Position numbers and translations under genes: made by a program. From SAR202 cluster bacterium (GTDB lineage Bacteria; Chloroflexota; Dehalococcoidia; Lucifugimonadales; VGZR01), in the NCBI GenBank assembly GCA_016872515.1, contig VGZR01000001.1:167322-231321 (forward strand): a DNA stretch of 64,000 bases, given 5' to 3'. Below the pieces are notes generated by a model. That model ran no database searches. It was given only the letters and a program-made list of their open reading frames with translations, and was not told the origin of the DNA. This document shows positions 3,073 through 60,771 of this stretch, one piece after another (position 1 is the stretch's first letter; every line of letters starts with the position of its first letter).

Positions 3073-3888
3073 TTATCCGAAGAGAGGATAGCCGTTAGGT
3101 CCTCCTCCCCCTTGAGGGGGGAGGACCTTTGGGCCGACCAGTCGGCCGAAAGGGGTGGGGGTGAATCCACATCCTGCGGGCAGAGTGTTTTTCTGCCACG
3201 CTAGCCCCACCGCCTTCGTCAGGAACTCCATGAACGGCGATGCCGTCCGGCACGCCGCCGCGTACTGCTCCATGAACTCGTCCGAGCACGCATCACCCAT
3301 GCCGAACTCCACCGTTGTCACGAAGTCCTTCCGCTTGAGGTCCTCGATGAAGGGATGGTTCGGGTCGAACCCCTTGGGTGACCGCGACACCGACTCGCCC
3401 CAGAACGAGTGCGCCGCCTTGAACGCTCGGCCCGAGATGGCCTTCTTCCACACCTCCGGCTTGGCCGCTATGGCCTCGCGGATGCGCAGCAGGGTAGGGC
3501 CGTCCGGCTGCCAGATGCCCGTCCCGCACATCACGTTCATCGGCTCCAGGTGGAGGTAGAATCCAGGCGTGTGCACGTCCCCCGTCGCATCGTGGCGGAA
3601 GTGCGCCGCCGCGTGCGTCTTATAGGGAGTCTTGTCCTTGGCGAACCGCGTGTCGCGGTAGATGCGGAACATCGAGCCGCCCACCGGCCTCGGGTCCGCC
3701 ACGAAGTGAGGGCTGATCTTCCTCAGCGGCCCCTGGAAGTCCTCGATGAACGCCAGCAGCGGCTGCTTCACGTCCCGCTCATACCGTTCCTTATTCGCGT
3801 TGAACCACGTCCGGTCGTTATTCATCGCCAGCTCCGCCAGGAACTGGAACAACTCTTTCCCGAAATACACCCTCTTTGCCATGGTCAT
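3073..3888 (-). CDS. DUF2461 (TIGR02453) family protein with repeat-encoded C-terminal tail
   Basis: MTMAKRVYFGKELFQFL...FRIYRDTRFAKDKTPYKTH. The start ATG at 3886-3888 overlaps the thiolase stop (ATGA). The last 30-35 codons read through repeat 3098-3168. Confidence 0.8.
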   Translation of the reverse strand: MTMAKRVYFGKELFQFLAELAMNNDRTWFNANKERYERDVKQPLLAFIEDFQGPLRKISPHFVADPRPVGGSMFRIYRDTRFAKDKTPYKTHAAAHFRHDATGDVHTPGFYLHLEPMNVMCGTGIWQPDGPTLLRIREAIAAKPEVWKKAISGRAFKAAHSFWGESVSRSPKGFDPNHPFIEDLKRKDFVTTVEFGMGDACSDEFMEQYAAACRTASPFMEFLTKAVGLAWQKNTLPAGCGFTPTPFGRLVGPKVLPPQGGGGPNGYPLFG

Positions 3889-22678: not shown

Positions 22679-23047
22679 ATGTCCAGGTCTATCAAAAAGG
22701 GCCCATTCGTAGACAAGAAGCTGGCCAAGAAGGTGGAGGCGGCTCGCCGCTCTAGCAGCAAGGCCATCATCAAGACCTGGTCGCGGGCCTCGATGATCAT
22801 GCCCGACATGCTCGGGCTGACCATCGCTGTCCACGACGGGCGGCGCCACGTCCCCCTGTTCATCACGGAGAACATGGTCGGACACCGCCTTGGCGAGTTC
22901 GCCGCCACCCGCATATTCCGCGCCCACGGCTCCAAGACAGAGAAGACCACCGAGGTCGCCCCCTCCGGCGGTCCAGGCCCAAGTGCTCCTGCGGCGGCCG
23001 GCGGCGGTGCAGGTGCGGGCGGCAGGGCAGCGCCCTCAAGGTCATAG
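22679..23047 (+). CDS. rpsS: 30S ribosomal protein S19 with Gly/Ala/Pro-rich C-terminal tail
   Basis: [15 protein letters not shown]...[11 protein letters not shown], followed by a tail of about 30 aa. Confidence 0.95.
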
Positions 23048-23409: not shown

Positions 23410-24162
23410 TTGGGGCATAAGACCCATCCCATAGGTTTCCGCCTCGGCGTCACGAGGGACTGGCAGGCCCACTGGTTCGCGGACAAGCAGAAAGGCTACC
23501 GCGCGCTGGTGAAGGAAGACATCGCCATCCGCAGCAGCATCATCGATAAGTACCCCGAAGCTGGCATCGCGAAGGTGGAGATTGAGCGCGGCTCGAACGA
23601 GGTCATCGTGACCGTTCACACCGCCAGGCCGGGCATCGTCATCGGCCGCGGCGGGCAGCGCGTCGAAGAGCTCCGCAAGATGCTCGAGGGACTGACCGAG
23701 CGCAAGGCGCGCCTCAACGTCCAGGAGATCCGGCAGCCGGAGCTCGACGCCTTCCTCGTCGCTCGCAGTATCGGCGACCAACTCGAACGCCGGATCGCCT
23801 TCCGCCGCGCCATCCGCCAGTCGGTCGGCAGGACCATGCAGGCCGGAGCCAAGGGCATCAAGGTCATCGCGTCGGGCCGCCTCGGCGGCGCCGAAATCGC
23901 CCGTAAAGAGAAGGCGATGGAAGGGCGCATCCCCCTCCACACCCTGCGGGCGGACATTGACTTCGGTATCGCGGAGGCCGCCACCGAGTACGGACGCATA
24001 GGCATCAAAGTCTGGATCTACCACGGGGACCAGGTCCGCGCCGTCAGGCCGCAGGAGGCCGAGGAGATGGCCCCCATCGAAGTAACCGTCAAACCAGAGC
24101 CGGAGCCAGAGGCTACTGCAAATGCTGCAACCGAAACGGGTAAAGTACAGGAATCACCATAG
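23410..24162 (+). CDS. rpsC: 30S ribosomal protein S3
   Basis: TTG start. [13 protein letters not shown]...; the acidic C-terminal tail overlaps rplP by 41 nt. Confidence 0.95.
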
Positions 24163-24585: not shown

Positions 24586-24720
24586 TCCTTTCCCCCTTGA
24601 GGGGGGAGGGCCGGCGTGGGGGTGAGTCCGTCGCCCCTCCTCTGGAGCCTGCCCTGAGCGCAGCCGAACGGGGAGAGGCCTTTGAACTCCACGACGCAGC
24701 CCAAAGGGTGAGGGGTAGGT
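24586..24720. repeat. mosaic repeat, two units filling the rplP-rpmC spacer
   Basis: CTCCTTTCCCCC-TTGA-GGGGGGAGGG..GGGGGTGAGTCC, then CCCCTCCTCTGGAGCCTGCCCTGAGCGCAGCCGAACGGGGAGAGG...CCCAAAGGGTGAGGGGTAGGT. It ends 1 nt before the rpmC ATG. Confidence 0.85.
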
Positions 24721-24721
24721 A

Positions 24722-24925
24722 ATGAACATCGCTGAGATCAGAGCGCTTTCCGATGCCGATCTGGCTACCCAGCTCGGCGAGAGCGAGCGCGCCCTTATGA
24801 ACCTCCGCTTCCGCGTGGCGACCCTCCAGCTCGCCAACGTGAACGAGGTCAGGAAAACGCGCCGTCAGATTGCCAAGATTAAGACGGTCATGCGCGAGAG
24901 GGAGCTGGCCACGGCCGCACAATGA
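24722..24925 (+). CDS. rpmC: 50S ribosomal protein L29
   Basis: 67 aa. EIRALSDADLATQLGESERALMNLRF. Assigned also by operon position. Confidence 0.9.
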   Translation: MNIAEIRALSDADLATQLGESERALMNLRFRVATLQLANVNEVRKTRRQIAKIKTVMRERELATAAQ

Positions 24926-25428
24926 GCTACGAACGACGCAAGATACGCATCGGCAAAGTCGTCAGCAACAAGATGACGAAGACGGTCGTCGTCTCGGTGG
25001 ACTGGCGCGGTCAGCACAAGCTGTACCGCAAATCCATCAGACGCCGCAGCCACTTCATGGCCCACGACCCCGAGGGCAAGTGCCGTCTGGGAGACACCGT
25101 CAAGATTATCGCGACCCGGCCCATCTCCAAACTCAAGCGCTGGCGCGTGACAGAGGTCCTGGCCCACGAGGAGATGGCCACCGAGATCCGGCCCGAGGAG
25201 ATTGCGGTGCCGGAGGAAGTCCAAGCGCCGAAGGCCGTGGCCCCTGTGGCTGCTGAGGCCGCCGCCGAAGCCCCGGCGGAAGCCGAAGAGAAGCCCAAGG
25301 CCAGGCGGACACGGGCCGAGGCCGAGGCCGCCGAACAGCCCGCCGCTGAGGCCAAGCCGAAGGCACCGCGCAAGTCGCGCGCCAAGGCGGAAGGCGACGC
25401 CTCCGGAGAGGGAGAAAACGCACAGTGA
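24922..25428 (+). CDS. rpsQ: 30S ribosomal protein S17 with an Ala/Glu/Lys-rich C-terminal extension of about 85 aa
   Basis: [16 protein letters not shown]...RWRVTEVL, followed by a low-complexity tail. Confidence 0.9.
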
Positions 25429-27319: not shown

Positions 27320-27327
27320 GGAGACAT

Positions 27328-27393
27328 TCCCTCCGCTCCCTCATGGGGAGGGGCCTTTGGCTCCGACCGCGTCGGAGGCAAAGGGTGAGAGGT
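27328..27393. repeat. mosaic repeat, A-B-T unit in the rpsN-rpsH spacer
   Basis: CTCCC-TCAT-GGGGAGGGG, then CCTTTGGCTCCGAC-CGC-GTCGGAGGCAAAGG, then GTGAGAGGTA. Confidence 0.8.
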
Positions 27394-27431
27394 AAAACAA
27401 ACGTGGCAACATACGGTACGAGGGACCATAG

Positions 27432-30084: not shown

Positions 30085-31403
30085 TGGTCCGCCAGACCCA
30101 AGCCTTCAAGCAAGAGTCAAGCCGGCCGCGGCTCATCCAGTCCATGATCGACGCCATGCGGGTCCCCGATCTGCGGACGAAGATCCTTTTCACCCTTGCC
30201 ATGCTCGTCATCTTCCGTTTCGTCGCCCACGTGCCGGTGCCCGGCGTGGACCCCCAGGCCCTCTCCCAGGCCTTCGAACAGAGCGCCATCCTCGGCTTCC
30301 TCAACCTCTTCAGCGGCGGCGCCTTGGCCAATCTCAGCGTCGCGGCCCTAGGCGTCTATCCCTATATCACCGCGTCCATCGTGATGCAGATCCTCACGCC
30401 CGTCATCCCGTCCCTCAAAGCCCTGTCCCAGGAGGGCGAGTTCGGCCGTCAACGAATCAATCAGTACACCCACTACCTCGCCGTCCCCATCGCCGCTCTC
30501 CAGGCCTGGGGCCAGCTCACCCTGCTCCAGCAGTCCGGTGTCCTCCCCGGTGTGGACTTCGGACTAAACCTCGGCACTCTCGCCATGATTTTCTCCATGG
30601 TGGCTGGCACCATGTTCCTCGTCTGGCTCGGCGAGCTCATCACCGAGCGCGGCCTCGGCAACGGCATCTCTCTCATCATCTTCGGCGGCATCGTTGCCAG
30701 CGTCCCCTCCATCATCGGCCAAGGCTTCCTCGAGCGCGACGATGCCGGTGGACTTCTCCTCCTTGCCGCCTTCGGCATCGGCATCATCTACCTCGTCGTC
30801 CTCTTCACCGAGGCACAGCGCCGCGTCCCCGTCCAGTACGGCCGCAGCGTCTTTCGCGGCGGACGCATGCAGCGCCAGAGCGGCTCCACCTTCCTCCCAC
30901 TCCGCGTCAATTCGGCGGGCATGATCCCCCTCATCTTCGCCTTCTCCATCGTCATCCTCCCGGCGACCGTCGCCAGCTACTTCTCCAACACCAACGCCGC
31001 CGCCCGCCTCGTCACCGACCTGCTCAGCCCCAACGGCCTTGTGTACTACATGCTCGTCGTCTTCCTTGTCGTCATCTTCACCTTCTTCTACACCATGGTC
31101 GTCTTCCAACAACAGAACCTGGCCGAAAACCTCCAGCGCAACGGGGGCTTCATCCCAGGCATACGCCCAGGCAAACCCACCAAGGACTACCTCAACCGAG
31201 TCATCATCCGCATCACATGGGGCGGCGCCCTCTTCCTCGGCTTCGTCGCCTTCCTCCCGTGGCTGGTGACCCAGGCAACGGATATCCGCGCGCTCACCAT
31301 CAGCGCCACCGCGCTCCTCATCATGGTGGGCGTCGCGCTGGACACCATGAGGCAGCTGGAGGCGCAGCTCCTCATGCGCAACTACGAAGGCTTTATCAGG
31401 TGA
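30084..31403 (+). CDS. secY: preprotein translocase subunit SecY
   Basis: Polytopic 439 aa ORF. ILFTLAMLVIFRFVAHVPVPGVD. GTG 30084 overlaps the rplO stop; ATG 30144 is an alternative start. Confidence 0.9.
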   Translation: MVRQTQAFKQESSRPRLIQSMIDAMRVPDLRTKILFTLAMLVIFRFVAHVPVPGVDPQALSQAFEQSAILGFLNLFSGGALANLSVAALGVYPYITASIVMQILTPVIPSLKALSQEGEFGRQRINQYTHYLAVPIAALQAWGQLTLLQQSGVLPGVDFGLNLGTLAMIFSMVAGTMFLVWLGELITERGLGNGISLIIFGGIVASVPSIIGQGFLERDDAGGLLLLAAFGIGIIYLVVLFTEAQRRVPVQYGRSVFRGGRMQRQSGSTFLPLRVNSAGMIPLIFAFSIVILPATVASYFSNTNAAARLVTDLLSPNGLVYYMLVVFLVVIFTFFYTMVVFQQQNLAENLQRNGGFIPGIRPGKPTKDYLNRVIIRITWGGALFLGFVAFLPWLVTQATDIRALTISATALLIMVGVALDTMRQLEAQLLMRNYEGFIR

Positions 31404-31415
31404 CATCGCGCTTTT

Positions 31416-31484
31416 TCTCCTCCCCCCCCCTTGAGGGGGAGGACCTTCGGCGCCGTTGCGGCGACGAAGAGGTAGGGGGTGCGA
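31416..31484. repeat. mosaic repeat, A-B-T unit in the secY-adk spacer
   Basis: CTCCTCCCCCCCCC-TTGA-GGGGGAGGACC, then TTCGGCGCCG-TTG-CGGCGACGAA, then GAGGTAGGGGGTG. Confidence 0.85.
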
Positions 31485-31535
31485 TACAAGGCAAGATGCG
31501 GCGGGAATCATTAGGTAAGGTTGTGGCCTAACGCG

Positions 31536-32189
31536 ATGAGAGTCATCCTTCTCGGCCCGCCCGGCGCGGGCAAGGGTACACAGGTAGAGCGGGTTGCCAA
31601 ACACCTCGGCGTGAATAGGGTGTCGTCCGGCGACCTCTTCCGTGACCACGTCCAGAAGAACTCCGAGCTGGGCCGCCTGGCCCGCTCCTACATGGACCGC
31701 GGTGCGCTCGTCCCCGACGACGTCACCATTCGCATGGTCATGGGCTGGATCAACGCTCCGGAGCAGGCCAAGGGGTTCGTCCTCGACGGGTTCCCGCGCA
31801 CCCTCGCCCAGGCCGGCGCCCTCGCCCAGGCGATGAACGGAAAGGGCGGTATCCACAGGGTTCTGTATATCAATGTCCCGGAAGCGGAGCTGGTCTCCAG
31901 GCTCAGCGGCAGGCTCGTCTGCAGGTCCTGCCATACTCCCTACAACAGCAAGATGTCGCCCCCGAAGAAAGAAGGCAAGTGCGACAAGTGCGGCGGCCAA
32001 CTCTACCAGCGCGAAGACGACAAGCCGGAGGCCGTTCGCAAGCGCCTCCAGGTGTATGTGAAAGAGACCGAACCCCTCGTGGAGTACTACCGGAGCAAAG
32101 GCCTGCTCGCCGAAGTCAACGGCGGGCGCTCCATCGAAGAAGTAGGGAAAGCTTTGGTGGAGGCGGTAACTCAACAAGTTCATCGCTAG
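31536..32189 (+). CDS. adk: adenylate kinase (zinc-lid type)
   Basis: MRVILLGPPGAGKGTQ. Lid CRSC...CDKCGG. Confidence 0.95.
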   Translation: MRVILLGPPGAGKGTQVERVAKHLGVNRVSSGDLFRDHVQKNSELGRLARSYMDRGALVPDDVTIRMVMGWINAPEQAKGFVLDGFPRTLAQAGALAQAMNGKGGIHRVLYINVPEAELVSRLSGRLVCRSCHTPYNSKMSPPKKEGKCDKCGGQLYQREDDKPEAVRKRLQVYVKETEPLVEYYRSKGLLAEVNGGRSIEEVGKALVEAVTQQVHR

Positions 32190-32200
32190 GGTGGAGCATC

Positions 32201-32316
32201 GTACCCCTCACCTCTTTAGGAGTGAGGGTCGCGATTCCTCCCCTCCTCTTGAGGGAGAGGCCTATGGCCGCGCTGGGCCCGGCCATAGAGCCTGCCCTGA
32301 GCTTGTCTAGCGGAAC
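32201..32316. repeat. mosaic repeat cluster in the adk-map spacer
   Basis: CCCTCAC..GTGAGGG hairpin, CCTCCCCTCCTC-TTGA-GGGAGAGG, CCTATGGCCG..CGGCCATAG, GAGCCTGCCCTGAGC module. Confidence 0.85.
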
Positions 32317-32453
32317 AGTGAGTTCGAAAGCATATCTAGCTATAATGAAGAGTAGCGAAGACCGGAGAGGATAAGAACATCAAGCGCGGAGTTGCACTGC
32401 CCCCGCTTCAGGCTGCGGGCATAACCATAAAGTCTCCATCGGAGATAGAGCTC

Positions 32454-33798: not shown

Positions 33799-34182
33799 AT
33801 GGCAATCATCTCAGGCGTCAACATCCCAGATAACAAGCGCGTGGAGATCTCCCTCACCAAGCTTTACGGCGTCGGCCCGGCTATGGCCAAACAGATACTC
33901 GCCAAGGCCGGCGTGGAGAACAACCCGCGCGTGAAGGACTTGAGCGAGACTGAACTGAACCGCATCCGCGAGCTTGTGGACAAGGAGCACACCGTCGAAG
34001 GCGACCTGCGCCGCGAGACGAACCTCAACATCCGGCGCCTCGTCGAGATCGGAAGCTACCGCGGCATCCGCCACCGCAAAGGCCTCCCCGCGCGCGGCCA
34101 GCGCACCCGCACCAACGCGCGGACCAAGAAGGGCGCCCGCAAGACGGTCGCCGGCCGCAGACACACCGTCGCCAAGAAGTAG
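33799..34182 (+). CDS. rpsM: 30S ribosomal protein S13
   Basis: [20 protein letters not shown]. Confidence 0.95.
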
Positions 34183-34240
34183 GTTGAGGAAAACCTTGAA
34201 CAGAATGGCTTACCTTTTAGAAAAGAGGAGTCCCCCTAGA

Positions 34241-34358
34241 CTCCCTCCCCCCCCTCGAGGGGGGGAGGATGTGGGGTGATTCCCGTGCGGGGTGGGAGTG
34301 CGTATCCTCCTCTCCCCTTGAGGGAGAGGCCCCAATGAAATCGGGGGTGAGGGGTAGC
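34241..34358. repeat. mosaic repeat, A-T plus A'-D units in the rpsM-rpsK spacer
   Basis: CTCCCTCCCCCCCC-TCGA-GGGGGGGAGG..GGGGTGA, then CCTCCTCTCCCC-TTGA-GGGAGAGG plus CCCCAATGAAATCGGGGGTGAGGGGTAG. Confidence 0.85.
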
Positions 34359-34394
34359 AAGAGCGTTCAAGCAAGTAGGGAGCAGGAGTAACGG

Positions 34395-34838: not shown

Positions 34839-34902
34839 GACAGAGGCCGAGCATCTGTGCATAACAAGCTTCGTCTCATGCGGACAGAGAACCCTTCAAA
34901 AC

Positions 34903-35012
34903 TTCCCTCCCCCCACAAGGGGGAGGGTCAGGGTGCGGGTGACGCTTCCTCCTCTCCCCTAGCGGGAGAGGCCTATGACCTGCCAGGGGCGGGTCATAGG
35001 GTGCGGGGTAAG
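34903..35012. repeat. mosaic repeat, A-T plus A'-B-T
   Basis: CCCTCCCCCC-ACAA-GGGGGAGGG, CCTCCTCTCCCC-TAGC-GGGAGAGG, CCTATGACC..GGTCATAGG, GTGCGGGGTAAG. Confidence 0.85.
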
Positions 35013-35060
35013 AGATCTGGAGTCCTGTCTGGTACGAAGGAAGATTGAGGCAAGGTATCG

Positions 35061-35855
35061 TTGGCCCAGGACACCTCTAAGTTCATAGAACGCAACCTCA
35101 CTGAGTTGCTGAACGAGACCTTCGCGGTCTATTGGCGGCACCTCAGAGAGTTCCTGTTGCTCGCCCTCCTCGTCCAACTCCCGCTGGCCGCCATCAGTTG
35201 GGCCGCAGGCGAGGGAGTCGCCGGCTACATCATCGTCCTCGTCTGCGCCATCATCGGCGGTGCCGTCGCCTATGGCGCAGGCATCTACGCGGTGGGCCAG
35301 CAGTACGTCACCGACAAGATAACCATCCGCAACTGCTACCGCAGGGCCCAGTGGCGTCTGCTCTCTCTCCTGGCCATCACCGCTGCCATCACCGTCGTGG
35401 CCATCTTGGGTGTCGGCCTGATTCTGATTGTGGTGCCCTTCCTGGTCGCCATGGTGTACCTGGTGTACTGGTCGGTGGCCGGACAAGCCATCATCATCGA
35501 GGGCCGCAAACCCCTCGACGCCTTGAAGCGCAGCCTCGAGTTGGTGCGGGGCGACTGGTGGCGCGTCTTCGGCATAATCCTCATCTTCCTGCTCGTCGCT
35601 GCGGGCTTTGGCCTCATGGTCAACGCCCCCTTCGTCATCGCCTCGTGGATCGTCGGAACGGAGCCGTCCTCCACCGTGGACGCCGCCCTCCGCTTCTTCG
35701 GCGGCCTGGCCGTCGGCACTGCCGTCGCGCCCATCCTCGCCATCGCTTGGACGCTGCTGTACTACGACCTGAGGCTCAGGAAAGAAGACTACGACCTCGA
35801 GATTCTGTCCCAGGAGTTGGGACTGGTGAGTTCGCAGGCTCAAGGGCCTGCGTGA
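35061..35855 (+). CDS. polytopic membrane protein inserted between rpsK and rpsD (DUF975/GPDPase-membrane-domain-like)
   Basis: 264 aa with about six hydrophobic segments. The overall pattern resembles YciC/DUF975-type proteins; the family call is from memory only. Confidence 0.6.
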   Translation: MAQDTSKFIERNLTELLNETFAVYWRHLREFLLLALLVQLPLAAISWAAGEGVAGYIIVLVCAIIGGAVAYGAGIYAVGQQYVTDKITIRNCYRRAQWRLLSLLAITAAITVVAILGVGLILIVVPFLVAMVYLVYWSVAGQAIIIEGRKPLDALKRSLELVRGDWWRVFGIILIFLLVAAGFGLMVNAPFVIASWIVGTEPSSTVDAALRFFGGLAVGTAVAPILAIAWTLLYYDLRLRKEDYDLEILSQELGLVSSQAQGPA

Positions 35856-36503: not shown

Positions 36504-36550
36504 CGATGCAAGAGATGCCTTCCTTGTTCCAGAACGGGAGCCCTCTTATG

Positions 36551-36595
36551 CTCCCCTCCCCCTTGAGGGGAGAGGGCCAGGGTGGGGGTGGATTC
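36551..36595. repeat. mosaic repeat, A-T unit in the rpsD-rpoA spacer
   Basis: CTCCCCTCCCCC-TTGA-GGGGAGAGGG..GGGTGGGGGTGGATTC. Confidence 0.8.
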
Positions 36596-36669
36596 GTAGC
36601 AAGGCCCCTCGCGAGTTCTTGTGCAAACGCTGAGTCGAACTCCTAGCTAAGTCATCGAAGGAGCACTTC

Positions 36670-37719
36670 ATGGTAATAGAGTTTCAGACCCTGGGCGGCA
36701 AGGACACTGCCCCCGAAGAGGAGCAGATGCCGAGCCCGAAACTGACCATCGTCGAGAGCGGCGACCGGTACGGCAAGTTCGCCGTCGAGCCCCTCGAGCG
36801 CGGCTACGGCATGACGTTGGGCAACCCCCTGCGCCGCGTGCTGTACAGCGCCCTGCCCGGCACGGCCGTGACCTGGGTGAAGATAGACGGCGTGCTCCAC
36901 GAGTATGCCACCGTCCCTCACGTCAAGGAAGAGGTCGCCGAGCTCCTCCTCAACGTGAAGGGCATCCGCCTCCGCTCGTCCGTGGACCGGCCGGGCAAGC
37001 TGCGGCTCGAGGTCTCGGGCGCCGGCGAGGTAACCGCGGGGGACATCATGGCCTCCTCCGACTTCGAGGTCGTGAATCCCGAACTGCACCTGGCAACCCT
37101 CGACTCCGCCAAGGCCAAGCTCTCGGTCGAACTCAACGTCGAGCGCGGCACGGGCTACCGCGTCGCCTCCCGCGGCGGCGGCCTGCCCATCGGCGTGCTG
37201 CCGGTGGACGCCGTCTTCTCGCCCATCCGCAAGGTGAACTACCGCGTCGAGCCGACCCGCGTCGGCCAGCGCACGGACTTCGAGCGGCTCACCCTGGAGG
37301 TCTGGACCGACGGCACCATCACCCCGGTGGACGCGGTCAAGCAGTCCGCCAACCTTCTAGTGAAGCACTTCTTCCTCTTCACCAGCGTCCAAGCTCCGGG
37401 CGCCGAGGTCAGCGACACGCCGCCCATCGCTCTGCGCATCTCGCCCGAGCAGTACAACACCCCCGTCGAGAAGCTGGATCTGTCCTCCCGCACCCTCAAT
37501 TGTCTCAAGCGTACCGGCATCGACAAGGTCGGCCAGGTCCTCGAGATGAAGAAAACCGAGCTGCTCCAGATCCGCAACTTCGGCGAGAAGTCCCTCAGCG
37601 AGCTTTACGGCCGACTTGCCTCCATGAACCTGCTGCCCCCCGAGCTGCAGGAGGGCGTCGGCGAGCCGCCGAAGGGCGATGCCGCCGAAGACGACAGCGA
37701 TGACGACGACGAGAAGTAA
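36670..37719 (+). CDS. rpoA: DNA-directed RNA polymerase subunit alpha
   Basis: GKFAVEPLERGYGMTLGNPLRRVLYSALPG. ATG 36670 has a GAAGGAG SD; ATG 36727 is an alternative start. Acidic C-terminal tail. Confidence 0.95.
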   Translation: MVIEFQTLGGKDTAPEEEQMPSPKLTIVESGDRYGKFAVEPLERGYGMTLGNPLRRVLYSALPGTAVTWVKIDGVLHEYATVPHVKEEVAELLLNVKGIRLRSSVDRPGKLRLEVSGAGEVTAGDIMASSDFEVVNPELHLATLDSAKAKLSVELNVERGTGYRVASRGGGLPIGVLPVDAVFSPIRKVNYRVEPTRVGQRTDFERLTLEVWTDGTITPVDAVKQSANLLVKHFFLFTSVQAPGAEVSDTPPIALRISPEQYNTPVEKLDLSSRTLNCLKRTGIDKVGQVLEMKKTELLQIRNFGEKSLSELYGRLASMNLLPPELQEGVGEPPKGDAAEDDSDDDDEK

Positions 37720-37737
37720 CTTCAGAGGAGAACGGTC

Positions 37738-38116: not shown

Positions 38117-39196
38117 ATGCGGCTGGCATTGGTCATAGAGTACGACGGCACCGGGTACCACGGGTTCCAGTACCAGGAGAACGCGCCGTCGGTGCAGGAG
38201 GAGCTGGAGGCGGCCATCGAGCGGCTCACCGGTGTGCGGCCACGCATCAAGGGCGCAGGCCGGACGGACGCGGGCGTGCACGCGGCGGGGCAGGTGGCGG
38301 CGTTCGACACGGAGTCGGCGTTGCCGCCGGAGACGTTCGTGCGGGGGATGAACCACTACTTGCCGGACGACATCGCGGTGAGGGCCGCGCACAGGGTCGC
38401 GGACGACTTCGACCCGAGGCGGCACGCGTTGGCCCGCGCGTACCGGTACACGGTGCTCAACCTGGCGACGCGGTCGCCGCTGACACGGCGCAGGGCGCTG
38501 CAGGTGGAGGAGCCGCTGGACGTGGCGGCGATGAACGAGGCGGCGCAGGCGTTCGTAGGCGTCCACAACTTCGCGCGGTTCAGCGGGCCGCTGGAGCGGG
38601 AGGAGGCGAGCACGGTGCGGCAGGTCTTCGCGGCGTCGGTGCGGCGGGGGGAATACCCCTCACCCTTTGGTCCTTCCGCGGAAGGACCAAAGGCCTCTCC
38701 CGCAAGGGGAGAGGAGGAAGTGGACACCCCCCTCACCCCTTCGACAAGCTTAGGGCAGGCTCTCGTCCCGACGCCAGTCGGGACAGGCCTCACCCCCTTC
38801 GACCTGGCTCAGGGCAGGCTCGAGGGGAGAGGGAACGATTTCGGGGGAGGCGGCCCTGGCGCGGCGGCGCGAGCAAAGGGTGAGGATGAGGCTCACCCGT
38901 CCGACGGGGCGCCTCAGGATGGGACAATCATCTCTATCGACTTTGAGGGGAACGCGTTTCTGCCGCACCAAGTCCGCCGGATGGCGGGCGCACTGGTGGA
39001 TGTGGGCAAGCGGCGGCTCGCCACAGACGATATCATGGGGATGCTGGAAGGAAGGCCGGACGGGCCGGTGGCAAACACGCTGCCGCCCCAGGGCCTGTGC
39101 CTCATGGAAGTGAGGTACGGGGGCTTCCCTCCTACGAGAAATGAGGAACGGAACGATGCAAGCAAGAAACTACAACCCACGGGCGTCAGAACTTAA
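38117..39196 (+). CDS. truA: tRNA pseudouridine(38-40) synthase TruA carrying an in-frame repeat-derived insertion of about 82 aa
   Basis: MRLALVIEYDGTGYHGFQYQ...GAGRTDAGVHA...YRYTV, then an insertion, then IISIDFEGNAFLPHQVRRMAGALVDVG. 359 aa against about 270 for typical TruA. Confidence 0.85.
   Translation: MRLALVIEYDGTGYHGFQYQENAPSVQEELEAAIERLTGVRPRIKGAGRTDAGVHAAGQVAAFDTESALPPETFVRGMNHYLPDDIAVRAAHRVADDFDPRRHALARAYRYTVLNLATRSPLTRRRALQVEEPLDVAAMNEAAQAFVGVHNFARFSGPLEREEASTVRQVFAASVRRGEYPSPFGPSAEGPKASPARGEEEVDTPLTPSTSLGQALVPTPVGTGLTPFDLAQGRLEGRGNDFGGGGPGAAARAKGEDEAHPSDGAPQDGTIISIDFEGNAFLPHQVRRMAGALVDVGKRRLATDDIMGMLEGRPDGPVANTLPPQGLCLMEVRYGGFPPTRNEERNDASKKLQPTGVRT
38653..38898. repeat. mosaic repeat cluster (three or more units) inside the truA ORF
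   Basis: TACCCCTCACC-CTTTGGTCCTTCCGCGGAAGGACCAAAG-GCCTCTCCCGCAAGGGGAGAGGAGG. Then CCCCCCTCACCCCTTCGACAAGCTTAGGGCAGGCTC-GTCCCGAC..GTCGGGAC. Then CTCACCCCCTTCGACCTGGCTCAGGGCAGGCTCGAGGGGAGAGG. Confidence 0.85.
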
Positions 39197-41565: not shown

Positions 41566-42720
41566 GTGCGCGTGACGGATGTGAAGTCGTTCCTGGTGCA
41601 TCCCGGCACCGCGAAGAGCCTGTGCTTCGTGAAGGTGGAGACGGACTGGGGTGTGCATGGCTGGGGGGAGTGCTACACGCAGTCGGACCGGGACGTGCAG
41701 ATTGCGGCGCACGTGGGGCAGCTGCGGCGGTACTTGGTGGGGCGCGACCCGGTGCACATCAAGAGTTTCGTGCAGGTGGTGCACGATGACGTGATGCACC
41801 GGCGGGGCTCGATGGACCTGTACAGCGCGCTGAGCGGCATCGAGCAGGCGCTGTGGGACATCGCGGGGAAGCGGCTGGGGGCGCCGGTGCACGCGCTGCT
41901 GGGCGGGGCGTGCCGGAGCAGGGTGCGGGTCTATGCGAACGGCTGGGGCGACGGGAACCTCGCGCCGGAGGAGTTGGCGGCGAAGGCGAAGGCGGTGTTA
42001 GGGCGGGGGTTCGGGGCGGTGAAGTTCGACCCGGTGCCTGGTCCGTGGCGCAGCTACGTGGACGCGAAGACGGAGCGGCGGGCCGTGGAGAACGTGGCGG
42101 CGGTGCGCGAGGCGGTGGGGCCGGACGTGGACATCCTGGTAGAGATCCATCGAAGACTCGCACCAGCGCATGCGGTGTCCATCGCGCGGGCCGTCGAGGA
42201 GTTCAAGCCTTTCTGGTTCGAGGAGCCGGTGTGGGCGGAGAACGTGGACGCGCTGGCGGCGGCGAAGCGGGAGATACGCATCCCGGTGGTGACGGGCGAG
42301 GAGCTGTACACGAAGTTCGAGTTCCGCGAGGTGTTCGAGAAGCGGGCGGCGGACATCATCAATCCGGACGTGTGCAACGTCGGCGGCATCCTGGAACTGC
42401 GGGAGGTGGCGGCGATGGCGGAGGCGTACTTCGTGGCGGTGTCGCCGCATAACTACAACTCGACCACGGTCGGGCTGGCGGCGACGGTGCAGGTGTCGGC
42501 GTGCATGCCGAACTTCCTCATCACGGAGTACTTTGTGAACTTGGAGCCCATCGGGAACAAGATTGCGCGGAAGCCCATCAGGGTCGCGGACGGGCACATC
42601 GCGGTGCCGGAGGAGCCAGGGCTGGGTATCGAGCTGGACGAGGCGGCGATGGCGAAGCACCCGTACGCGGAGTTTCCGGTGCGGCGGATGAGACGGTTGC
42701 ATGGGGAGGAGGGAGGGTAG
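41566..42720 (+). CDS. enolase-superfamily enzyme (mandelate racemase/muconate lactonizing, sugar-acid dehydratase-like)
   Basis: GTG start after AGGAGA. VKVETDWGVHGWGEC...FWFEEPV...PVVTGEE...NPDVCNVGG. Confidence 0.85.
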   Translation: MRVTDVKSFLVHPGTAKSLCFVKVETDWGVHGWGECYTQSDRDVQIAAHVGQLRRYLVGRDPVHIKSFVQVVHDDVMHRRGSMDLYSALSGIEQALWDIAGKRLGAPVHALLGGACRSRVRVYANGWGDGNLAPEELAAKAKAVLGRGFGAVKFDPVPGPWRSYVDAKTERRAVENVAAVREAVGPDVDILVEIHRRLAPAHAVSIARAVEEFKPFWFEEPVWAENVDALAAAKREIRIPVVTGEELYTKFEFREVFEKRAADIINPDVCNVGGILELREVAAMAEAYFVAVSPHNYNSTTVGLAATVQVSACMPNFLITEYFVNLEPIGNKIARKPIRVADGHIAVPEEPGLGIELDEAAMAKHPYAEFPVRRMRRLHGEEGG

Positions 42721-43079: not shown

Positions 43080-43268
43080 TTTCACCCTCACCCCTTCGAC
43101 AGGCTCAGGGCAAACTCTTTGGTCCGCCTGCAGCGGACCAAAGGCCTCTCCCTTCAAGGGAGAGGAGGTTGAACGTCACCCCCATCCTTCGGCTGCGCTC
43201 AGTACAGGCTCTTAGTTCTCCCCTCCTTCGACAGGCTCAGGACAAGCTCTCGAGGGGGAGGAGAGTTT
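43080..43268. repeat. mosaic repeat cluster between the small protein and the amidase
   Basis: TTTCACCCTCACC-CCTTCGACAGGCTCAGGGCAAACTC-TTTGGTCCGC..GCGGACCAAAG-GCCTCTCCC-TTCA-AGGGAGAGGAGG. Then TCACCCCCATCC..., then CCTTCGACAGGCTCAGGACAAGCTC-TCGA-GGGGGAGGAG. Confidence 0.85.
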
Positions 43269-47475: not shown

Positions 47476-48428
47476 CTATGGCTTGTTTTCGAAGAAGCGG
47501 CGGGGGTTGTCCACGGTAATCTGGGTGATGGTCTTGTCCGGAACGCCCAACCCCTTGAGGCGGGGCAGACCTTTGCGAGTGATGAAGAGGAAGCTGTCGG
47601 GGTTGTGAGTCATGAAAGCTTTTTGCTGCTTGGGGCCGATGATGCCTGGATAGACGCACCAGTCGTGGCCGAGGAGGATGCGGTGCGCCCAGCCTGCGTC
47701 TATGAGGCGCTTGATGGTGCCGGCGCGCTGGGTCCATGAGCGCGTGCCTGGGGTGACGTCGCCGAGGAAGGTCCTGTCGAGGCCGACCCAGGCGCTCTTC
47801 TTCATGAGACCGGCGACGTCGGCGGTATCGTTGCTGTGGCCGATGTACACCTGGTTGAGGTTGAGCTTCTCGCTCTGGAAGATGCGGAGCTGCTGGTCGC
47901 CGACGCGCTCGGGCGCCCAGGTGTGGCAGGAGATGGGGACGCCGGTCTTCTTGGCAGCGCGGGCGGCAGCGCGGAGGATGATTTCGCCCTCGGGGGTGAC
48001 GCCGCCCCTGTCGGTGGCGACCTTGATGATGCCGGCCTTGATGCCGGTGCCCTCGATGCCCTCCTTGATCTCGCGGGTGAAGAGGGCGGCGATGTCGTCA
48101 ACGTTGGCCTGCCAGAAGGCGCGGGGGATGTCGAGCAACATGCCTGTGCAGGCGATGATGTTCATGCCGCTGCGGCGGGAGACTTCGCGGACGAGGCGGA
48201 CGTCGCGTCCGAGGTCAAGGGTGGTGAGTCCACGATGGTGTCCACGCCCCCGGCCTTGGCCTCGCGGAGGATGCGGACGGCGTTGGCGACGATGGTGTTT
48301 CGGGGGCCGATGAAATCGTGATAGACGTGGCGGATGCCTGCGGAGGAGACGGCGACATGCTCGTAGGAGAGGGTGAAGCCGAGGGCCTTGGTGTCGAGGG
48401 GGCCGAGGACGGAGTTGATGCGGGCCAC
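47476..48428 (-). pseudogene. phosphotriesterase-family hydrolase interrupted by a -1 frameshift
   Basis: ORF 48162-48428 (..GVDTIVDS) and ORF 47476-48165 are consecutive parts. The downstream frame read upstream gives TTLDLGRDVRLVREVSRRSGMNIIACTG, the family-typical continuation. The lesion lies near 48225-48232. Confidence 0.7.
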
Positions 48429-48575: not shown

Positions 48576-48762
48576 ACCCCTCACGCTTTGGCCCCGCTTG
48601 TATCGGGCCAAAGGCCTCTCCCGCAAGGGGAGAGGAGGTGAATCCACCCCTACCCCTTTGGGCCGACCAAGTCGGCCCAAAGTTTCCTTCCCCTTCGCCC
48701 TGCTCAGGGTCAAGGACAGGCTCCCCCCCCTCAAGGGGGAGGAGGAAATCACACCTACCCCC
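48576..48762. repeat. mosaic repeat cluster (T-B-A', T-B, E, A, T)
   Basis: CCCCTCACG-CTTTGGCCCCG..CGGGCCAAAG-GCCTCTCCC-GCAA-GGGGAGAGGAGG. Then CCACCCCTACC-CCTTTGGGCCGAC-CAA-GTCGGCCCAAAG. Then ...GGACAGGCTCCCCCCCC-TCAA-GGGGGAGGAGG. Confidence 0.9.
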
Positions 48763-56812: not shown

Positions 56813-58105
56813 ATGCAGAATCCTTCGATCCTTCGACAAGCTCAGGACAGGCCAAGCTCAGAACAGGCTCCAAAGGGGCCGCTTGAGGGGGTCCGGGTCG
56901 TTGACTGGACGATTTGGCAGTTCGGGCCGATCGCGGCGACGATGCTGGGCGACCTCGGGGCCGATGTCATCAAGGTGGAGGCGCTGGACGGGGATCCGGG
57001 GCGCGCGGTGTTCTCGGCAGGAGGTGTGGATAGGAGCCTGCCGGAGGGGCGGAACTCGTACTTCGAGGCGAACCACCGCAACAAGCGGTGCATCGCGCTG
57101 AACCTGAAGCACCCGGATGGCCGCGAGGTCGTCCACAAGCTGGCGAAGAACGCGGACGTGTTCATCCAGAACTTCCGGCAGGGCGTAGCGGAGCGGCTGG
57201 GGCTGGACTACGAGACGCTGCGGAAGCTGAACCCGAAGGTCATCTACGGGTCGGGGTCAGGCTACGGGCCGAAGGGGCCCGACTCGGCGTTGCCTGCGCT
57301 GGACAGCGCGGCGCAGGCGCGGAGCGGGCTGATGTATGCGACGGGGCCGGAGGGCGCGGACCCGTTCCCCATTCATGGGGCTGTGGGCGACCAGATGGGC
57401 GGCATCATCCTTTCTTGGGGCATCCTGGCGGCGCTGGCGGGGCGCTCGCTCCACGGCATCGGGCAGAAGGTGGAGGTGTCGCACCTGAGCAGCAGCATGT
57501 GGCTGCAGGGGCTGTCCATCAGCATGAGCCTGCTGACGCAGCACAAGCCGCCGTCCGAGGTGAACTTTAGCGTGAGGCAGGCGCGGCAGAAGGCGTTCAA
57601 CCCCATCTCGAACTACTACAGGTGTAGGGACGGGCGCTGGATGATGCTGGCGAACTTCGAGGCGGACCGGTACTGGGCGTCGTTCGCGCGGGCGGTGGGC
57701 ATCGGGCGTCTGGCGGACGACCCACGGTTCAAGGACACGCATGCGCGGACGGCGAACCGGGTGGAGCTCATCAGGGTGCTGGACGAGGTGTTCGCGACGA
57801 AGACGTACGCGGAGTGGGACGAAATCATGCGGACGAAGGGGGACTTCATCTTCGCGCCGGTGCAGCACATCTCGGAGCTCCCGCGCGATCCGCAGGTGTT
57901 GGCGAATGGATACATCGCGGAGGTGGAGCACCCCGTGCTGGGGAAGGCGAGGCTGACGGACCACCCGGTGCGGTACAGCGAGACGCCGCACAGCATACGC
58001 CGCGTGGCACCGGAGCTTGGGGAACACACGGAGGAGATCCTGCAGGAGCTGGGGTACGGTTGGGAGGACATCGCGTGGCTGCAGGAGGCGGGGGTGATTC
58101 TGTAG
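56813..58105 (+). CDS. family III CoA-transferase (CaiB/BaiF-like)
   Basis: GVRVVDWTIWQFGPIAATMLGDLGADVIKVE. 430 aa. GAGGAGGG SD. The first 20 or so codons lie in repeat modules. Confidence 0.85.
   Translation: MQNPSILRQAQDRPSSEQAPKGPLEGVRVVDWTIWQFGPIAATMLGDLGADVIKVEALDGDPGRAVFSAGGVDRSLPEGRNSYFEANHRNKRCIALNLKHPDGREVVHKLAKNADVFIQNFRQGVAERLGLDYETLRKLNPKVIYGSGSGYGPKGPDSALPALDSAAQARSGLMYATGPEGADPFPIHGAVGDQMGGIILSWGILAALAGRSLHGIGQKVEVSHLSSSMWLQGLSISMSLLTQHKPPSEVNFSVRQARQKAFNPISNYYRCRDGRWMMLANFEADRYWASFARAVGIGRLADDPRFKDTHARTANRVELIRVLDEVFATKTYAEWDEIMRTKGDFIFAPVQHISELPRDPQVLANGYIAEVEHPVLGKARLTDHPVRYSETPHSIRRVAPELGEHTEEILQELGYGWEDIAWLQEAGVIL
56821..56870. repeat. two E-type repeat modules inside the 5' end of the CoA-transferase ORF
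   Basis: TCCTTCGATCCTTCGACAAGCTCAGGACAGGCCAAGCTCAGAACAGGCTC. Confidence 0.7.
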
Positions 58106-59128: not shown

Positions 59129-59899
59129 CTACTGGGCGGTCATGCCGCCGTCGATGACGAGCTCGGACCCGGTGATGTAGGAGGACTCGTCGGAAGCGAG
59201 GAAGAGGATGCCGTCGGCGACCTCCTCAGGCTTTCCCCATCTTGCCATGGGGACCTTGGCAGTGTAGAGAGCGAGTTTATCGGGGTCTTCTTGGAGGCGA
59301 TGGGTCATGGGGGTGATGCAGAAGCCTGGGTGGATGGAGTTGGCGCGGATGTTGTCCTTGGCGTACTGGATGGCCGTGGCCTTGGTGAAGATGCGGATGG
59401 CGCCCTTGGCGGCATGGTAGGCTGCGGAGGTCTGGCTGCCGACGAGTCCGTAGATAGAGGAGATGTTGACGATGGAGCCGCCGCCGACCTTGCGCATCTC
59501 GGGGATGGCGTGCTTGGTGCCAAGGAAGGTGCCTTTGGCGTGGACGTCCATCTCGTGGTTCCAGATGTCCAGGGTAGCCTGTTCGACGGTGTTCATGTAG
59601 CCCTGGCCGGCGTTGTTGACGAGGACGTTGAGTTTGCCGTAGGTCTTGACGGTCTGGGCGATGGCGCGCTTCCACTGCTCCTCGTCGCGCACGTCGAGGG
59701 GGATGAACAGGGCGTCGTAGCCGTGTTCGCGGAGCTGGGTCTCGCTCCGGCGGGCTAGGTCCTCCTTGATGTCGCACAGGACGACCTTGGCGCCTTCGCG
59801 GGCGAACATCCAGGCGGAGGCGCCGCCGAAGCCCATGACCTCTCCTTTGATGCCTGCTGCTGCGCCGGTGATGAGGGCGACCTTTCCTTTGAGACGCAT
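59129..59899 (-). CDS. SDR-family oxidoreductase (copy 2 of 3)
   Basis: ATG 59899 after GAGGAGG. MRLKGKVALITGAAAGIKGEVMGFGGASAW...YHAAKGAI. Confidence 0.85.
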   Translation of the reverse strand: MRLKGKVALITGAAAGIKGEVMGFGGASAWMFAREGAKVVLCDIKEDLARRSETQLREHGYDALFIPLDVRDEEQWKRAIAQTVKTYGKLNVLVNNAGQGYMNTVEQATLDIWNHEMDVHAKGTFLGTKHAIPEMRKVGGGSIVNISSIYGLVGSQTSAAYHAAKGAIRIFTKATAIQYAKDNIRANSIHPGFCITPMTHRLQEDPDKLALYTAKVPMARWGKPEEVADGILFLASDESSYITGSELVIDGGMTAQ

Positions 59900-59921
59900 G
59901 GCTTGCCTCCTCATGTTGGGA

Positions 59922-60725
59922 CTACTGTGCGATAACGCCGCCGTCGATGACGAGCTCGGCGCCGGTGACGTACGAGGACTCGTCGGAGGCGAGGAAGAGG
60001 ATGCCGAAGGCGATCTCCTCGGCCTTGGCGAGTCGGCCCAGGGGTACCTTGGGCAGGCGCGGGTCGGGTATGCCGGCTGCGGCGAGTTTGGCGATGCCCT
60101 GGCGTGCGAGAGGAGTATCGGTGTAGCCGGGGTGGACGGAGTTGACACGAATGTTCTCTTTGGCGTACTGGATGGCGGCGGCCTTGGAGAAGATACGGCT
60201 GGCGCCTTTGCCGGTTGAGTAGGCGATGCCGAGGGGGTTGCCGTTGATGCCGTCTATAGAGGAGATGTTGACGATGGAGCCGCCGCGGTTCTTGCGCATG
60301 GCGGGGATGGCGTGTTTAGTGCCGAGGAAGACGGCCTTGGCGTGGACGTCCATCTGGGCGTCCCACTTGTCCACGGGGGTATCTTCGGCGCCTCCGATGA
60401 AGGTGGTGCCGGCGGCGTTGACCAGGATGTCTAGGCGGCCGAACTTGGAGGTCGCGAAGCTTACGGCGCCTATCCAGTCGGCCTCGTTGGTGGCATCCAA
60501 ACGCACGAACTCGGCCCGGCCTCCGGCGTTCCGAAGCTGCTGGGCGGCTTTCTTTCCTTTGTCTTCGTCGAGGTCTCCCAGGACGACGGCAGCGCCTTCG
60601 CGGACGAAGAGCCAAGCAGCAGCGCCGCCGATGCCCAACACCCAGTCTTTGCCTTCGGAGCGGGGGTCTCCTTTGAAGGCGGTGGCTCCACCGGAGATGA
60701 GGGAGACTTTTCCTTTCAGGCGCAT
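59922..60725 (-). CDS. SDR-family oxidoreductase (copy 3 of 3)
   Basis: MRLKGKVSLISGGATAFKGDPRSEGKDWVLGIGGAAAW...YSTGKGAS. Confidence 0.85.
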   Translation of the reverse strand: MRLKGKVSLISGGATAFKGDPRSEGKDWVLGIGGAAAWLFVREGAAVVLGDLDEDKGKKAAQQLRNAGGRAEFVRLDATNEADWIGAVSFATSKFGRLDILVNAAGTTFIGGAEDTPVDKWDAQMDVHAKAVFLGTKHAIPAMRKNRGGSIVNISSIDGINGNPLGIAYSTGKGASRIFSKAAAIQYAKENIRVNSVHPGYTDTPLARQGIAKLAAAGIPDPRLPKVPLGRLAKAEEIAFGILFLASDESSYVTGAELVIDGGVIAQ

Positions 60726-60771
60726 GGCATACCTCTTATTAAGAGCAAGGCTGTTTCAGGACCCACTTTGC

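Follow-up and report, generated by a model that had tools for sequence, protein, structure and literature searches.

The truA locus and its insert

The DNA analysed here is a 64-kb stretch of the SAR202 cluster bacterium contig VGZR01000001.1, referred to below as the window. Its truA gene stands in the conserved gene order rpoA - rplQ - truA - rplM - rpsI and is interrupted, in frame, by DNA made of repeat units that recur elsewhere in the window. The gene was divided into the following parts:

38117..39196, + strand: truA open reading frame (ORF), 359 aa with the insert (ORF list, PF01416 and gene calls on public contigs)
38117..38647, + strand: native N-terminal truA part, aa 1-177, with GRTDAGVHA (Asp51); ratio of non-synonymous to synonymous substitution rates (dN/dS) 0.20, predicted local distance difference test (pLDDT) 76-96
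38648..38917, + strand: in-frame insert, 270 nt = 90 aa (G178-Q267), absent from the aligned orthologues
38918..39193, + strand: native C-terminal truA part, aa 268-359; dN/dS 0.36, pLDDT 85-97 to residue 340

TruA is the tRNA pseudouridine38-40 synthase, and the protein was matched to its Pfam family PF01416 (PseudoU_synth_1; E 2e-34, 118.6 bits) in two stretches, the second covering residues 263-334. The nearest named TruA proteins were those of SAR202, Chloroflexi and Dehalococcoidia metagenome-assembled genomes (MAGs). At its 3' end, the final 41 nt of the gene overlap the start of rplM at 39156. With 359 aa the product exceeds the usual length of TruA orthologues (~250-270 aa), and alignment with 13 TruA proteins of Chloroflexota (253-288 aa) left 90 aa in excess, which confirms the unusual length pointed out in an earlier reading of the sequence (the initial annotation). 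That reading had placed the insertion at 38653-38898. These positions do cover the recognisable repeats, but the full extra segment extends from 38648 to 38917 and is about 25 nt longer. Its borders are ...ASVRR on the N-terminal side and DGTIISIDFEG on the C-terminal side. A phmmer search against the PDB paired Q267-DGTIISIDFEGNAF with E. coli TruA 179-RHGPYVVVDIKANAF, so that the insertion site corresponds to the TRHGPY hairpin turn, as proposed before.

The insert is open in the frame of truA and without a stop codon, again as first described; its length is 3n, and no other frame of it is stop-free. Composition-matched shuffles were stop-free in 13% of cases; as one length in three is 3n by chance, the probability of both is about 4%. 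The encoded peptide, with the segments GNDFGGGGPGAAAR, GEEEVDTPLTPSTSLGQALVPTPVGTGLTPFDLAQGR and GEDEAHPSDGAPQDGTIISIDFEGNAFLPHQVR, is rich in G/P/A/E/S and has a net charge of -7. Searched against 5.8 billion proteins, the 90-aa insert peptide gave no match and no other carrier protein. The G+C content at the first, second and third codon positions (GC1/2/3) is flat in the insert (0.74/0.63/0.68) compared with the truA core (0.70/0.48/0.88). Lacking the GC3 signature of truA, the insert reads as foreign DNA that was not recoded.

Five contigs, assembled independently (JGI 3300020197, ENA ERZ27247963, Logan and NCBI), encode an identical 359-aa protein, and the DNA spanning the insert is identical among the contigs L005, L006 and the window. 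A one-off misassembly is thus unlikely.

Repeat units within the insert

The units were characterised with a covariance model, R1, derived from an alignment of 18 units from the window and from the contig of a close relative, and with motif scans and a list of inverted repeats (I1, I2 and so on). The recurring parts of a unit are a third-strand complement (T), two arms that pair into a hairpin across a first loop, and a second loop that itself contains a hairpin; a 24-nt module (E) can occupy the first loop. The insert contains:

38653..38720, + strand: repeat unit 1, a complete triplex-motif unit, then AGG; top R1 match (87.1 bits, E 3e-21)
38656-65, + strand: T of unit 1, CCCCTCACCC (motif scan)
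38664-93: loop-2 hairpin of unit 1, a perfect 15+15 palindrome with a 15-bp stem (inverted repeats I2, I15)
38694-38714, + strand: hairpin CCTCTCCC/GCAA/GGGGAGAGG of unit 1 (inverted repeats I2, I15)
38729..38784, + strand: repeat unit 2 (motif scan, inverted repeat I17), with T CCCCTCACCC at 38729-38, the E module CTTCGACAAGCTTAGGGCAGGCTC at 38739-62 and an 8-bp hairpin GTCCCGAC/GTCGGGAC at 38765-84
38788..38833, + strand: repeat unit 3, with the pyrimidine arm CCTCACCCC, the E module and the purine arm GGGGAGAGG
38834..38917, + strand: degenerate 84-nt insert tail (inverted repeat I1, 22 nt, 82%)

The insert thus holds three units and a degenerate tail, in agreement with the three or more modular repeats recognised initially, and pieces of it were matched at no fewer than 14 other places in the window by blastn-short and motif scans. 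Unit 1 is identical over 31-33 nt to copies at 48608 and 58161, and the E module of unit 2 was matched at 43085, 32287, 24645 and 56830. The E module forms a long loop 1 in unit 3 (38798-38821), followed by the purine arm GGGGAGAGG at 38824-32. This long-loop form recurs at 24650-24700, 43215-43265 and 48690-48745, and in the truA insert of the sister lineage described below. In the tail, the T end recurs in inverted form (CAAAGGGTGAGG, 38874-85), and no further matches to the tail were obtained elsewhere in the window; from its sequence it is probably an older, decayed unit in opposite orientation.

Identity and distribution of the repeat family

Model R1 located about 35 units in the 64-kb window, or one per ~1.8 kb, with unit 1 of truA scoring best. 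In the 18-unit alignment, 11 of the 13 pairs of the loop-2 helix show double changes, and 86.5% of the helix cells are paired, against 76% after shuffling (reached in 0 of 500 shuffles) and 46-67% in slid controls. The covarying pairs indicate that the hairpin is conserved as a structure while its sequence varies.

By its sequence, the repeat can be identified as the G/C-rich class II intrastrand triplex motif BoxC / PIT / TM, an identity that the initial annotation did not recognise. The motif runs in the order pyrimidine arm, loop 1, purine arm, loop 2 and reverse-Hoogsteen arm, and the E. coli TM sequence is CCCTCTCCC-TGT-GGGAGAGGG-CCG-GGGTGAGGG (Holder et al. 2015, PMC4666352, Table 1). 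The window unit is the reverse complement of this E. coli motif (TM_ECO), truA having the complementary strand. A window unit that lacks the loop hairpin aligns directly with the TM pair of E. coli lldD-trmL. Of 5426 E. coli genomes, 3720 have matches to this unit, at 11272 places in all, with an identity of 78-80% and weak individual E-values. All eight triads of truA unit 1 are among those allowed in class II triplexes (G*G-C, A*A-T, T*A-T). Runs of at least eight allowed triads were present in 7 of the 18 units, compared with 3% of shuffled third arms; the other units are imperfect. Covariation between third arm and purine arm did not go beyond the consensus, the score being 6.3 within a unit and 6.0 with the arms of other units.

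The motif has been described in a series of studies (Bachellier, 1990s; Hoyne & Maher 2000; Holder et al. 2015, PMC4666352). It is present in more than 260 genomes, and as single-stranded DNA it forms a stable triplex in vitro, as shown by circular dichroism and nuclear magnetic resonance on E. coli oligonucleotides; no in vivo footprint and no promoter or terminator activity were found, RNA polymerase is unaffected by the PIT/TM elements of E. coli, and in E. coli the loci with TM show raised instability, as hotspots where small local changes occur (PMC4666352).

A pattern for the hairpin part, which did not include the third arm, was scanned against one genome per species. Matches were found in Anaerolineae, other Chloroflexi, Nitrospiria, Planctomycetota, Phycisphaerales, Tepidisphaerales, Variovorax and Alphaproteobacteria, which represent at least five phyla; examples among the loci L010-L060 are L027 5417-5442, L024 6315-6555 and L050 2619-2644. 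Just upstream, 65 of the 73 matches had the T sequence CCCCTCACCC, compared with 2% of control windows; it either abutted the hairpin or was set off from it by a hairpin of 16-24 nt. Dozens of copies with a 16-24 nt loop-2 hairpin were present in the Alphaproteobacteria MAG MFD09206.bin.1.212, so the variants with a hairpin in the loop are not unique to this lineage of Chloroflexota.

At most 2 of the 35 units lie in coding sequences, though 87% of the DNA is coding, and this scarcity is read as selection against genic copies. The case outside truA is the following:

3098..3164, - strand: repeat unit (R1, 64 bits) in the DUF2461 gene 3073-3888 (-), encoding the tail part ...FTPTPFGRLVGPKVLPPQGGGG...

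The Pfam domain of the DUF2461 protein stops at aa 222 of 271, and the remaining 49-aa tail derives partly from a complete unit in sense orientation. On this evidence the tail appears to be a C-terminal extension formed from the repeat. A related observation concerns a CoA-transferase III gene, whose called start runs through E-module repeats at 56813-56880 (MQNPSILRQAQDRPSSEQAPKG...) while its Pfam domain begins at aa 24. The start codon was probably called too early; the other reading is a repeat-derived N-terminal extension.

Several units lie in spacers of the S10/spc/alpha ribosomal-protein operons, namely between L16 and L29 (24536-24721), S14 and S8 (27320-27431), L30 and L15 (29505-29637) and S13 and S11 (34180-34394), and at 34839-35060 and 36504-36669. 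Being internal to operons, these units are co-transcribed with highly expressed genes and are evidently not terminators.

Other assignments were tried. Rfam returned no family for the repeat at the gathering threshold and only chance-level matches up to E 10; a weak match to BjrC80 was discarded (E 0.099, 20 vs 80 bits). The repeat was also not accepted as a MITE (a miniature transposable element with inverted repeats), as neither a consistent target-site duplication nor convincing terminal inverted repeats were found at the unit borders. The lone regularity there is a 5' TA, which may be part of the unit. No GTAG/CGTC tags were seen in the unit consensus, and neither a RAYT gene nor any other transposase was found among the genes of the window. 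The BoxC/PIT/TM family is not known to have a transposase.

The insert in a sister lineage

The closest relative of the window TruA, P0002, is a protein of 304 aa with 76% identity over the aligned residues, found on five contigs from four samples. It carries an insert of 35 aa (105 nt, again 3n) at the same codon, after VRR, which consists of one unit; loop 2 of this unit forms another hairpin, and its loop 1 is occupied by an E module. The initial annotation had held that orthologues with a homologous, non-repeat insert at the same place would refute its view. This applies by half: an insert does occur at this place in the sister, yet it is repeat-derived too. A metagenome scan for close relatives of TruA gave 80 further loci (312 kb), all of at most 67% identity, in which no truA insert and only two weak repeat matches were found. 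As these insert-free loci are almost without units near truA, the insert goes together with a lineage-specific expansion of the repeat.

The window was also compared with the contig of the relative (L001) at four orthologous intergenic sites, between L30 and L15 (29505-29637), SecY and ADK (31401-31532), ADK and MAP (32187-32450) and S13 and S11 (34180-34394). All four have a unit in both lineages and in the same orientation, with well-conserved non-repeat flanks, but the hairpins in loop 2 differ entirely. Hairpin subtypes of one genome are found again at non-orthologous loci of the other; that of truA unit 1, for example, is present in the relative at a non-orthologous site, over 27 of 28 nt. 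Swaps of hairpins at fixed sites imply that the units there are replaced or converted quickly, which fits the instability of the TM loci in E. coli. From the sequences compared, it seems that copies convert one another or have their hairpins replaced in the manner of cassettes. The history of the truA insert was probably a single insertion before the split of the two lineages, followed by remodelling and accretion.

Conservation of TruA

For the truA core, comparison with P0002 gave a synonymous divergence (dS) of 0.46 and a dN/dS of 0.27, made up of 0.20 for the N-terminal and 0.36 for the C-terminal part. This lies within the range of the neighbouring genes (0.07-0.38), and both halves of truA are under purifying selection. 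All residues invariant in the family are kept (R49, T50, D51, G53, H55, A56, Y109, R168, F281, L282, G326 and L329), including the catalytic Asp51 in an intact GRTDAGVHA.

AlphaFold2 modelled the core with pLDDT 85-97, and residues 182-267 below 50 and without secondary structure. This low-confidence insert is located between the strands 167-178 and 271-278, which agrees with the loop position suggested at first. The model keeps the fold of TruA: in a Foldseek search, it matched E. coli TruA 2nqp_D with a template modelling score (TMt) of 0.87 and a root-mean-square deviation of 2.2 A; 1dj0_A and 1vs3_A are likewise covered by TMt values of 0.86-0.87.

The permissiveness of the loop was assessed on 150 representatives, the best among 1.8 billion proteins and mostly of 240-300 aa; eleven of them, picked mainly among the longest, were aligned. 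Four of these eleven (P0169, P0211, P0231 and P0268), distant bacterial TruA homologues with 38-43% identity to the query, have low-complexity inserts of 40-70 aa at exactly this hairpin. Their inserts are unrelated in sequence to each other and to that of the window truA, and they provide independent evidence that the turn tolerates insertions.

Strand polarity of the units

The orientation of the units and the base composition of the DNA both switch close to truA:

37720..37737, no strand: rpoA/rplQ spacer, 18 nt, where the GC3 skew and the unit orientation both change sign

On the + strand, the GC3 skew is negative for every gene through rpoA, irrespective of gene strand, and positive from rplQ on for nearly all called genes. 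Exceptions are 59143-59913 and 59936-60739, for which the gene coordinates are possibly imprecise. The skew flips within about 150 nt of the spacer, and the cumulative G-C minimum is at 37641. To the left of 37.7 kb, 15 units are in '-' orientation; to the right, 18 are '+' and two '-' (41329 and 39899) (Fisher 4e-8). The relative's contig shows the same skew flip (L001 9604-9678) and the same pattern of unit orientation. Sense copies, at 43105 and in truA, show that orientation does not track transcription. Unit orientation goes with the replication strand and not with transcription.

By its sign the switch resembles an origin, whereas the gene orientation would fit converging forks. A search for DnaA boxes at the switch gave no cluster (6 matches vs 3.6 expected, none near), no dif-like site was found there (best 10-11 mismatches of 28), and among octamers resembling FtsK orienting polar sequences (KOPS), the G-rich ones merely follow the skew.

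A strand polarity of this kind would be expected if the G-rich strand folds when single-stranded. It is conceivable, if rather unlikely, that the motif is active in this lineage instead of a passive relic: its G-rich strand would fold in vivo when single-stranded, so that units are inserted or tolerated on a single replication template, its two loops would act as docking sites at which copies exchange hairpin cassettes, and landings at permissive codons would create rapidly remodelled disordered segments in proteins.

Origin and fate of the insert

The initial annotation had left three options for the insert: a tolerated disordered surface loop, inactivation of the gene, or removal of the insert by some means. 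The first is favoured by the low dN/dS, the intact residues, the predicted fold, the frame kept in two lineages and the permissive loop. We therefore regard the insert, with a probability of roughly 75%, as a translated and tolerated disordered loop of TruA, probably ancestral and later remodelled, which would be analogous to the Rickettsia palindromic elements (RPE) found in coding regions.

Under this reading, repeat units would have entered truA at the codons of the beta-hairpin turn, plausibly by replication slippage, template switching or microhomology at purine-rich Glu/Gly codons. With a 3n length and an open frame, the segment would be transcribed and translated as a disordered loop of 90 residues, acidic and rich in Gly, Pro and Ala, projecting from an otherwise intact TruA that keeps its function. 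The content of the insert would then be remodelled by the instability of the repeat family itself, through unit replacement and accretion, while variants that break the frame would all be lost to selection. The preservation of the frame in two lineages with inserts of different length may be read as such selection.

Some points weigh against this view. Translation of the insert and retained activity of the enzyme are deduced from dN/dS and the preserved frame. Evolution is faster in the C-terminal half than in the N-terminal half (0.36 vs 0.20), which could reflect some relaxation of constraint. The truA gene is dispensable in E. coli and non-essential in model bacteria, so selection on it could be weak and a partial loss of function could be hidden. 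Bacterial TruA forms dimers via loops that sit atop the core, with contacts from each tRNA to both subunits. A second truA could be present elsewhere in the genome, outside the window. As to the history, an ancestral insertion and independent insertions at the only permissive site are indistinguishable with two lineages. Finally, no genome-wide habit of coding insertions as in Rickettsia emerges from the data: the peptide search was empty and the 64 kb hold only one further, terminal case.

Among the alternatives, exaptation fares best, and even this is improbable. The insert would have gained a role, either as a protein segment (an interaction or solubility loop) or as mRNA hairpins tuning the translation or stability of truA and the overlapping rplM-rpsI. 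It has been retained in both lineages since a dS of about 0.46, and the 301-nt insert region folds to -165 kcal/mol (z = -3.65 vs shuffles) with four strong hairpins. The 41-nt overlap of truA with rplM and the co-transcribed units inside the ribosomal-protein operons (L16/L29, S14/S8, L30/L15) would also suit a role in the mRNA. Against such a role, however, both sequence and length of the insert differ between the lineages (90 vs 35 aa, with other hairpins), its codons show no adaptation, its AlphaFold2 model has no structure, and PIT/TM elements in E. coli are without promoter, terminator or RNA polymerase effect.

Inactivation, in which the insert cripples TruA and the gene is an early pseudogene still free of stops, is less probable again. 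A 90-aa insertion could indeed disrupt a compact enzyme, truA is not essential in model bacteria, and the dN/dS of the C-terminal half (0.36) is the higher of the two. Nevertheless, no decay was seen: the dN/dS of both halves is well below 1 although a dS of 0.46 has elapsed with an insert in both lineages, the invariant and catalytic residues are intact, the frame was kept through lineage-specific remodelling, and the same loop is permissive in other TruA lineages.

Removal or skipping of the insert as an intron, an intein or by translational bypass (in the manner of T4 gene 60 or the mitochondrial 'byp' elements of Magnusiomyces) is very hard to sustain. The GC-rich, stable hairpins in a coding region are superficially byp-like. 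No intron or other family was found in Rfam at the gathering threshold, Pfam shows PF01416 alone and no intein/Hint domain, and the borders have no stop and no evident matched pair of take-off and landing codons; moreover, preservation of the frame would then be unnecessary, leaving the stop-free frame and the 3n lengths in both lineages unexplained. An assembly artefact, in which a misjoin induced by the very abundant repeat placed intergenic DNA into truA in a short-read metagenome assembly, is likewise very improbable, given the same junctions on five contigs from different samples and assemblers, the separate insert that the sister has at this codon (five contigs, four samples), units shorter than typical reads and an insert exactly in frame.

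Comparison with known repeat systems

The window repeat shares with BoxC/PIT/TM the sequence and order of the three arms (CCCTCTCCC - loop - GGGAGAGGG - loop - GGGTGAGGG), a multi-copy distribution across phyla and an association with local sequence turnover. E. coli has 23 TM copies, which are always intergenic and without strand bias, with loops of 3-4 nt (PMC4666352). In contrast, the window has ~35 copies in 64 kb, a density about 100-fold higher; loop 2 is a covarying hairpin of 25-30 nt; loop 1 at times reaches 24-30 nt, including the 24-nt 'E' module (CTTCGACAAGCTCAGGGCAGGCTC); orientation is strongly polar; and units occur inside a coding region, where they would be read as protein. 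The short loops (1-6 nt in ITxF), the intergenic location and the lack of strand bias described for E. coli therefore do not hold for the window units. The sequence and the arm layout place the window repeat in the BoxC/PIT/TM family, as an expanded variant. In the literature searched, BoxC/TM units within conserved genes were nowhere described.

The RPE (Ogata et al. 2000, 2002; PMC10969869) resemble the truA insert in being dispersed palindromes found in frame in unrelated housekeeping genes, at sites compatible with the fold, with a product that stays a single ORF (PMC10969869). They differ in their unrelated, AT-rich sequence of about 100-150 bp, and in encoding a conserved peptide in dozens of genes per genome, where here one internal and one terminal case were found in 64 kb. 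By analogy, the truA case may be considered an RPE-type phenomenon in a new host and with a new repeat family.

Intragenic ERIC/RU and MITE-derived fusions (Delihas 2007, PMC2759123; Delihas 2011, PMC3184786) are similar in that small structured intergenic repeats occasionally add peptides to ORFs. The window repeat is a member neither of these families nor of the RPE. Target-site duplications and inverted repeats at the termini are features of MITEs, whereas the truA insert has a weak inverted repeat (22 nt, 82%) and no consistent duplication. REP/BIME elements with RAYT (Di Nocera 2013, PMC3733652) are also short, G+C-rich, extragenic, high-copy palindromes that are often clustered; the window units differ in that no GTAG/CGTC tag was seen in their consensus, by mostly direct instead of inverted arrays and by the three-arm triplex layout.

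Other genes in the window

Several ribosomal proteins have long low-complexity extensions rich in Ala/Lys/Glu/Pro, which apparently are not built from repeat units. L5 (26104-27087, 327 aa) is extended by about 145 aa at the N-terminus, and C-terminal tails are present in S17 (24922-25428, 168 aa), L13 (39156-39872, 238 aa), S19 (22679-23047, 122 aa) and S3 (23410-24162, 250 aa). Between rpsK (S11) and rpsD (S4) lies a membrane-protein-like gene (35061-35855, 264 aa) with a weak DUF7847 match, which is conserved in the relative's contig with a dN/dS of 0.16.

The overlapping neighbour ORFs 47476-48165 and 48162-48428 (-), of 229 and 88 aa, both match the phosphotriesterase family PF02126 and may be a split or frameshifted gene. 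In the relative, an 'intergenic' stretch of 557 nt (L001 13936-14492) upstream of an MR_MLE_C gene reads as the N-terminal coding part of an enolase-superfamily gene, which is intact in the window at 41566-42720; the gene of the relative is probably disrupted or mis-called.

Significance

BoxC/PIT/TM elements have been known since the 1990s and occur in hundreds of genomes, without agreement on what they do or how they spread. Their density and polarity in the present lineage, with exchangeable hairpins in the loops, make it a natural system for questions on structure formation in vivo and on propagation. The truA insert would extend to another phylum and another repeat family the paradigm set by RPE, in which permissive surface loops allow selfish repeats to turn into coding sequence, and it maps a permissive site in TruA. 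For annotation it is a warning that low-complexity segments encoded by repeats may be present in long TruA, and in other proteins, of such genomes. If the motif is indeed active and polarised by replication, it would be the first natural in vivo evidence of the BoxC/PIT structure and would represent a new route to innovation in protein loops.

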